Of a stretch of 32,599 bases of DNA, positions 5,705-6,328 are shown piece by piece. The notes under the pieces are model-generated. The model was not told where the DNA came from, did no database searches, and saw only the letters and a list, made by a program, of their open reading frames with translations. The DNA is taken from IMG/VR virus record IMGVR_UViG_2713896897_000010, positions 1 through 32,599 of that record; one strand, given 5' to 3'. The position numbers were made by a program, and so were the translations under genes. Numbering within the stretch: the stretch's first letter is position 1; the number at the start of each line of letters is the position of its first letter. The stretch is from a virus. Its lineage: Duplodnaviria > Heunggongvirae > Uroviricota > Caudoviricetes.

Positions 5705-6328
5705 GTGCGTTATGTAATGCGCGCAGTTCTTCCCGTGAAACGTGCGTTATCGGTTTTTCGCTGCTGTGCTGTGCCAGCCAGCGAACAGGCAGAATCTGAC
5801 TTGAAATCAGGCGAGCAATATCTTAATGAGCTGATCACCAACATAGAGTTTGCTGCAAGGGCACCAGTTGAAGTCGTGAGAGCGATGGCAGCAGAGCTAC
5901 AGAAGCGGCGCGAAGCTGATAGTGCAGAACCTGTAAGCCAAACTTACAAGTTGCCAGTTAATACACCTTGCCAAGATGCGCCAGCCCATATCTGGCTGCA
6001 AACGGCTGGAGTATGGCCAGAAGATAGCGAGTTAAGCGAATTAACGTGGTGCAGCCACAATCAGCACAGTGATGACACGCTATATGTTCGAGCTGACCTT
6101 GTGAATGGCAACTCTCCGGTAACTTCGGGCGGTTGGATAAGCTGTAGTGAGCGAATGCCAGGTGATGGTCAGCACGTAATTATTTTATGTGATGGCGCAT
6201 TCGTTCTTCATGCGCAATATCGAGACAGTGAGTTTTTCGATATTGTCCGCAATGGTAATGAATTTTTTGAAACACAGAGCCGCAATGTAACCGACTGGAT
6301 GCCGCTACCAGAACCACGAAGGAGGTGA
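5705..6328 (+). CDS. DUF551-domain phage protein, 3' fragment; first ~40 codons of the ORF are antisense to recE and probably not native
   Basis: C-terminal [31 protein letters not shown]...[10 protein letters not shown] matches DUF551 signature; ORF starts inside the recE reading frame. Confidence 0.4.

Follow-up and report, generated by a model that had tools for sequence, protein, structure and literature searches.

How a lambdoid prophage comes to carry a recE gene with no usable start at its 5′ end, set against a DUF551 gene and followed by no immunity or replication functions, is the question raised by the locus described here. The stretch of DNA analysed, referred to as the window, is 32,599 nucleotides long and comes from contig BBVG01000005.1 of the Escherichia albertii assembly GCA_001514595.1. 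The genes ttcA, dbpA and zntB lie next to its integrase gene, placing the element in the Rac attachment region. Very probably (probability about 0.92), a Rac-family lambdoid prophage residing beside ttcA lost about 6.3 kb in a single internal deletion, and the junction between recE and DUF551 is the scar.

The ttcA site, an IntR-type integrase, xis, ralR with RalA and a recT–recE left arm are all features of the Rac family found in the window, and its DNA identity to Rac-type elements is 91–99.6%. Identity to E. coli is only about 89–91% because the element belongs to E. albertii. The immunity region of the family (RacR-type repressor, cro-like gene and ydaT) and replication genes of the ydaU/ydaV type are absent.

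The truncated recE gene

The remnant of the exodeoxyribonuclease VIII gene, recE′, occupies positions 3057–5808 on the minus strand and retains the last base of codon 132 together with codons 133–1048. The loss amounts to 395 nt, comprising codons 1–131 and two bases of codon 132. According to the list of open reading frames (ORFs), the ATG at 5489 is the first ATG, GTG or TTG of the frame after the upstream stop. It opens the longest startable ORF (3057–5489, minus strand, 810 aa), which corresponds to translation from the internal Met239 of a 1048-aa RecE and includes the whole PD-(D/E)XK nuclease domain. A recT-family annealase gene (1993–3045, minus strand, 350 aa, PF03837) lies directly downstream, as expected of a recE partner; it is intact and equal in length to recT of the intact E. 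albertii relatives L009 and L010.

Above ATG 5489, the frame continues as a start-less extension (5490–5825, minus strand) of 111 codons closed by a TAA at 5823–5825. The preliminary description had noted this open stretch and its stop, and translation bears both out. Its further statement that no possible start codon exists there is correct for ATG, GTG and TTG, none of which occurs in translation of the 111 codons (5490–5822), but not for the rare starts CTG, ATT, ATC and ATA, which are the sole start types present. The RecE-like nature ascribed to these codons is real, with 106 of the 111 derived from RecE (I133–W238). The outer five (D-I-A-R-L) are antisense DUF551, and the stop is the first one that the frame meets in antisense DUF551, 15 nt beyond the join.

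Comparison with homologues leaves no room for a RecE of this type that starts naturally at ATG 5489 behind an unrelated frame. The best 120 homologues of the complete 921-codon frame are all 990–1048 aa long and contain the N-terminal Exonuc_VIII domain (PF06630), and the 106 upstream codons are nearly identical to residues 133–238 of the 1048-aa RecE. The closest relative is the 1048-aa E. albertii protein P0011, with 99% identity over 99% of the query; in an ungapped comparison from Q136 to the end, 908 of 913 residues are identical, and the C-terminal part from residue 262 on is the same in both proteins. BLASTP against the 1023-aa RecE of E. coli MEI003 gives 87% identity over the whole 917-residue alignment, in which window residue 6 pairs with residue 122. 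The alignment to intact Rac-like prophages and full-length recE proposed in the preliminary description thus located a breakpoint rather than a natural start at 5489.

The domain content of recE′ is divided. The C-terminal nuclease domain is present (PF12684, E = 8e-13), and its RPD...DVK motif aligns to the RecE structure 3H4R, although the match is weak (E = 2e-7). The Exonuc_VIII domain covers profile positions 146–203 of 203 only, compared with 1–203 in the 1023-aa MEI003 protein. The gene is classed here as a 5′-truncated pseudogene, and not as an intact RecE member, because PF06630 is incomplete and no ATG, GTG or TTG precedes Met239.

A short segment of recE′, 5418–5556, holds 12 of the 26 differences that separate the window from its intact E. 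albertii relative. Mutational decay was rejected as the source of this cluster, since 10 of the 12 differences are alleles of E. coli recE genes; the segment is a short recombination patch. The RecE type of the window (1023–1048 aa) has N-terminal and central regions in common with K-12 RecE, while its nuclease domain is only remotely similar (3H4R, E = 2e-7), and it is paired with a 350-aa RecT in place of the 269-aa RecT of K-12. The recombination module is therefore mosaic.

The DUF551 remnant and the chimeric ORF

On the plus strand, a 5′-truncated DUF551 gene, DUF551′, extends over 5808–6328 and keeps codons from about 11 or 12 to 183, as well as the stop. The C-terminal part of a DUF551 protein had been recognised here earlier. 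The domain is indeed encoded from 5808 onward (PF04448, E = 4.9e-17, profile positions 1–66 of 68, Pfam), but 172 of 183 codons remain, which is more than a mere 3′ part. What has gone is about 31 nt, including the native start and codons 1 to 10 or 11 of the intact 183-aa E. albertii allele P0003; relative to P0003, the remnant is kept from G12 on, with two of 172 residues differing. The best-matching E. coli locus, L003, aligns to window positions 5808–6326, and its DUF551 gene begins 31 nt ahead of the match. The same boundary is met in all 28 of the 28 IMG/VR loci that have the intact 5′ end of this DUF551 allele: there, as in L003, homology to the window begins at 5808 and never further left. 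Downstream, all 28 loci are mosaic.

Reading through the join creates a chimeric ORF of 207 aa (5705–6328, plus strand) that starts at GTG 5705, has an in-frame ATG at 5717 and runs from antisense recE into the DUF551 frame; its N-terminal 35 residues come from antisense recE. A Prodigal-type gene caller reports this chimera from GTG 5705, and RefSeq annotates 165-aa and 164-aa products with CTG or other non-canonical starts. The 207-aa ORF is probably a by-product of the junction. As a side possibility, the antisense-recE leader and the DUF551 part may be translated together as a new protein. For annotation purposes, both recE and DUF551 should be flagged at this locus as pseudogenes or fragments.

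Position and structure of the junction

Three-way alignments place the deletion junction at 5808|5809. Positions 1–5811 of the window align to the intact E. albertii loci L009 and L010 with 99.55–99.57% DNA identity (26 differences in 5.8 kb), and there the alignment ends; base by base, identity stops at 5808, with mismatches at 5809 and from 5812 onward. The join is put at 5808|5809 because recE-side identity ends at 5808 and DUF551 homology starts at 5808. The interval 5790–5830 given in the preliminary description does contain the breakpoint, which is located at this position and not at the stop codon 5823–5825. At the join, the recE-side parent reads ...CTGAAATC|GGGAG, the DUF551-side parent reads ...AGTATCC|AGGCGAG and the window reads ...TTGAAATC|AGGCGAG. 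A single base (C) is common to both parents; there is no filler DNA and no repeat.

The gene recE is transcribed leftward and DUF551 rightward, and their truncated 5′ ends abut; the arrangement is therefore head-to-head and divergent. The tail-to-tail fusion described previously was a mistake, as both genes have lost their 5′ ends.

The structure of the join limits the ways in which it can have arisen. An origin mediated by an insertion sequence or transposon was rejected, given that foreign or filler DNA is absent, and so was a repeat-mediated homologous deletion, given that the parents share only one base. The join is that of a deletion by illegitimate end-joining or of the slippage type. 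It is not a chance feature, as each flank has near-identical full-length homologues elsewhere.

The junction was sought in several collections. Among 5,426 complete E. coli genomes, no place covered at least 80% of positions 4800–6700, and an exact search for the junction 27-mer found it in none of the GTDB species representatives, IMG/VR or the JGI metagenomes. In an exact look-up, the 810-aa and 207-aa ORFs of the junction were each found on one contig only, that of E. albertii GCA_001514595.1. The deletion event looks private to one assembly.

This restricted occurrence, together with the draft whole-genome shotgun origin of the contig, is what could speak for an assembly artefact, which nevertheless has only the slightest probability. 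The join lies deep inside a contig of 221,927 bp, and an assembler would have had no repeat to collapse, since the two sides of the join have a single base in common. Moreover, the flanks are exactly those expected from a contiguous deletion of a known gene block, and the same element contains other independent decay lesions.

The lost early region

Between recE′ and the block of DUF1367, ybcO and DUF1133 genes, the ORF list, Pfam, the gene caller and Rfam reveal no helix–turn–helix (HTH) or replication gene. The interval 5809–7590 contains only the DUF551 remnant, a small ORF, hok/sok and a 70-aa ORF; the earlier remark that genes like cI, cro, N, O and P are missing between recE and the nin/Q region is in full agreement with this. 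The small ORF to the right of DUF551′ has 27 codons in the ORF list, and the gene caller puts a 34-aa gene nearby. The remaining sequence of the window was assigned to genes for lysis, packaging, and the head and tail.

Intact relatives indicate what formerly lay at the join. In L010, which has the identical RecE type, about 6.3 kb separate the equivalents of the two breakpoints. This interval encodes, in order, a racC-like ORF, ydaE, kilR, DUF1391, a 139-aa HTH repressor, an 80-aa cro-like HTH gene, ydaT, a 262-aa gene, the DnaC-like ydaV, DUF1627 and DUF977, followed by DUF551. The gene order from recE to DUF551 is the same in L005, a prophage at the ttcA site of E. coli O55:H7 CB9615, and beyond its plus-strand DUF551 gene come a small ORF, hokD, DUF1367, DUF1364 (ybcO) and DUF1133, which is the right side of the window. 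In L010 as in L005, the genes for immunity and replication thus stand complete between recE and DUF551, and the large internal deletion of a cryptic prophage surmised in the preliminary description is upheld.

Other prophages give the same picture. From int to recE and from hok to the tail genes, the window runs collinear with the Rac-type prophage of E. coli MEI003, but 9.3 kb separate these segments in MEI003 and 0.9 kb in the window. Ten loci have the identical 70-aa Mok/Hok; in nine of them, an immunity and replication block is situated upstream of hok on the same strand (IS-truncated in two), and in six, a DUF551 gene adjoins hok. In general, the full-size Rac-like prophages at ttcA (CB9615, MEI003 and E. 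albertii GCA_027566055.1/ENA contig k141_107085) possess a complete recE and an early region of 6–9 kb, whereas in the window the early region is missing and recE codon 132 is joined to DUF551 codon 11. The left arm of the full-size E. albertii loci is near-identical to that of the window (99.55%), and the order from recE through DUF1133 is alike in CB9615.

In the proposed mechanism, illegitimate, non-homologous joining would have made the deletion, with one end 395 nt inside the leftward-transcribed recE and the other about 31 nt inside the DUF551 gene of the rightward nin-type region. The event would have removed the first 131 2/3 codons of recE, the racC-like gene, ydaE, kilR, DUF1391, the RacR-type repressor, the cro-like and ydaT (cII-like) genes, both replication genes, DUF1627, DUF977 and the first DUF551 codons. 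The divergent early promoters and operators presumably went too, which would leave the prophage with neither an immunity switch nor replication functions. With nothing to drive early transcription, recE′–recT and the nin/Q and late genes would be promoterless and silent.

The genes racR, ydaS and ydaT make up an immunity region of the cI/cro/cII kind (PMC5917428), and RacR is essential in that it represses the toxic ydaS–ydaT genes (PMC5700377, PMC5700373). Loss of the repressor was probably tolerated here because the toxic early genes under RacR control left in the same event. The locus would thus be a base-resolved example of safe repressor loss, in which toxic early genes and, by inference, early promoters disappear together with the repressor.

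The breakpoints, the lost gene content, the orientation of the strands and the lesions elsewhere in the element are direct observations; that they go back to a single step is the most economical reading, and it is called no more than that because no sampled genome is the exact parent, none matching both flanks. It is improbable that several steps or two elements were involved in the junction, as in illegitimate recombination of the ttcA Rac prophage with another lambdoid prophage or in the import of a P0003-type DUF551 followed by deletion. Such an origin would account for the mosaic right flank: beyond DUF551, L010 is 89–91% identical to the window, and its DUF551 allele is a different one (239 aa) with another N-terminus. 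In E. coli L003, moreover, the N-terminal part of the window's DUF551 allele sits in the early-left operon of a lambda/P22-like prophage, next to cII, cIII, kil, xis and int and in the opposite relative orientation, and the allele patch at 5418–5556 shows that this recE has recombined with other alleles. However, to the right of the scar, order and orientation are throughout those of ttcA Rac-type prophages, and a plus-strand DUF551 beside hok recurs, as in the six loci mentioned above. The window-specific C-terminus ...PEPRRR is also that of the intact allele P0003, an indication of one and the same nin-type context. Mosaic differences are normal among lambdoid phages and do not require an extra junction event, so that, given the conserved order and orientation, a multi-step origin is less economical than the single deletion.

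Expression of the truncated recE

The sbcA alleles of the K-12 Rac prophage switch on recE and recT and suppress recBC. They supply expression via promoter or operator changes or via fusion to an expressed upstream gene. The window resembles them in having a change upstream of or within the 5′ part of recE, but differs in lacking a detectable replacement promoter or start. A consensus scan of the minus strand over 5489–7163, the 1.7 kb upstream of ATG 5489, found no sigma-70-like promoter, weak or non-sigma-70 promoters and read-through being beyond the reach of such a scan; across the region, matches were no more numerous than in shuffled sequences. The bases leading up to ATG 5489 (AAGAGTGG-ATG) make a poor ribosome-binding site, and the regulatory region expected to hold the early-left promoter lies in the deleted block. 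A translational fusion that could drive recE and recT is likewise not apparent, the upstream frame being start-less and closed by a stop.

The suggestion in the preliminary description that recE is expressed from the internal ATG in the manner of sbcA alleles is accordingly left without support from the scan and the start context, and the analogy is weak. The preferred view is that recE′ became a pseudogene recently and that recT has been left stranded. RecE, RecT and Lar are activated by sbcA (PMC3141261), which is also mentioned briefly in PMC9504249; on the molecular nature of sbcA alleles, literature searches yielded nothing usable.

That recE′ is a functional sbcA-like allele, with an 810-aa RecE′ from Met239 and RecT made constitutively in the absence of repressor, is highly improbable. 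The ORF from ATG 5489 is intact and identical from residue 262 to its full-length relative, recT is intact, and RecE can in principle stay active when shortened at the N-terminus (PMC11611040); by analogy, the 810-aa RecE′ would plausibly be active if made. Yet the deletion took the whole regulatory region with the presumed early-left promoter and not the repressor gene alone, no sigma-70-like site serves the minus strand for 1.7 kb, the Shine–Dalgarno sequence is poor and the upstream 111 codons offer no canonical start. Nor is the intact ORF a strong argument, since so young an event would leave it intact in any case. The truncation data come from the K-12 domain (3H4R), to which the nuclease domain of the window bears only a distant relationship (E = 2e-7). 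The 810-aa ORF is considered intact because the event is young (26 differences in 5.8 kb; 99.55% identity), and it would be for this reason only that recE′ still encodes a whole nuclease domain.

A variant of this idea, in which RecE′ (810 aa, from Met239) and RecT form a natural repressor-free recombination module expressed at a low constitutive level, is a similarly long shot. Such expression may stem from read-through or from a cryptic promoter in antisense DUF551/hok. If the variant were true, the E. albertii strain would gain an sbcA-like, RecA-independent recombination capacity. Under the preferred reading of a single deletion, the silent and largely intact late region, together with recT and recE′, would constitute a recombination reservoir for incoming lambdoid phages.

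The remaining prophage

Rightward of the scar, the hok/mok/sok toxin–antitoxin locus (6706–7116, plus strand) is the first unit left intact. The sok RNA is matched by Rfam RF01794 (114.7 bits, 6706–6880, plus strand) and hok by PF01848; in a scan, the locus showed signals of its own, with a promoter-like site at 6671–6699 and a terminator-like site at 7099–7116. It is followed by a nin/Q-like block (7590–9017, plus strand) in which Pfam identifies DUF1367, a frameshifted ybcO/DUF1364 and DUF1133, the latter a Q-like antiterminator. DUF551′, DUF1367, ybcO and DUF1133 have lost their PR-type promoter region, and the late genes should be off.

Several further genes are damaged. The integrase gene intR (1–1236, minus strand) has a premature TAG at 946–948; comparison with the intact 411-aa IntR of L010 identifies a change of GAG to TAG that converts E97 to a stop, leaving ORFs of 96 and 309 aa, of which the gene caller reports only the latter. 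In ybcO/DUF1364 (8189–8478), a 1-nt deletion at about 8276 changes GTGCTGGCG to GTGCGGCG in comparison with E. coli L004 and L005. The 96-aa gene is thereby frameshifted, and the gene caller gives 42 aa only. The tape-measure gene (24819–28028) has lost one nucleotide from an A-run at about 27033 (A7 to A6), with a resulting stop at 27048–27050; a homopolymer sequencing error is possible in this case. The same gene also has an in-frame 3-nt deletion at 26733.

Because the deletion of the immunity and replication region occurs together with the intR nonsense mutation and the ybcO and tape-measure frameshifts, the element is judged to be a locked-in, defective prophage and should be classified accordingly, its sequence predicting an uninducible, non-replicating element whose integrase gene is interrupted by a stop. 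This is ordinary prophage decay of a well-known kind, and it leaves the present understanding of decay unchanged.

Some features of the surviving gene content are independent of the scar. The RalA antitoxin sRNA is encoded opposite ralR (1557–1735, plus strand; Rfam RF02694, 209 bits); with ralR/RalA and hok/sok, two toxin–antitoxin loci survive in a defective prophage. A 331-aa HNH endonuclease ORF with HTH and HNH_3 domains (14216–15211, minus strand) lies antisense within the first third of a 772-aa ORF (14098–16416, plus strand). The terminase domains of the latter do not begin before residue 368, and in E. coli MEI003 the annotation describes the same terL as incomplete at its N-terminus; the HNH ORF has the look of a homing endonuclease inserted at the boundary between terS and terL. 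Positions 11155–12868 (plus strand) encode a 259-aa ParB_N-domain protein followed by a TET-associated glycosyltransferase (TAGT, PF20691, E = 2e-35), a pair that may be a DNA-modification module. At the same spot, K-12 Rac has ynaK/ydaY.

Related prophages and lesions

The Rac prophage of K-12 shares with the window the ttcA site and a left arm composed of int, xis, a DUF1187 gene, ralR with the RalA sRNA, recT and recE, and it too is defective through internal deletions. Its gene order is intR-xisR-ralR/RalA-recT-recE-racC-ydaE-kilR-sieB-racR-ydaS-ydaT-ydaU-ydaV.... The two elements are the converse of each other in what they have retained. K-12 Rac keeps the immunity/replication region and a full recE (866 aa) and has lost most late genes, whereas the window keeps the lysis, terminase, head and tail genes and has lost the immunity, kil and replication genes. 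The RecE (1048-aa type) and RecT (350 aa) of the window are also different alleles from those of K-12.

A comparable lesion is found in E. coli 3PT (L002, NZ_CM137004.1, 4773–7036), where an N-terminally truncated recE is annotated as a pseudogene and the breakpoint is equivalent to window position 5749. The neighbours to the right of this recE are a gene fragment, KilA-N and hok; genes for immunity or replication are missing there. Both the breakpoint and the right-hand partner differ from those of the window, which makes it an independent lesion and shows that decay of the same kind recurs in E. coli.

Altered RecE proteins of another sort occur in E. albertii. The variants P0014, P0022 and P0023 (663–671 aa) have a normal N-terminus and an altered C-terminus, unlike the window. 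In these proteins, each of which is found on 3–10 contigs, an unrelated hydrophobic tail (...LEKLDWKRQVVIAAVYGL...) stands in place of the nuclease domain, and they appear to represent another recurrent recE lesion or fusion.
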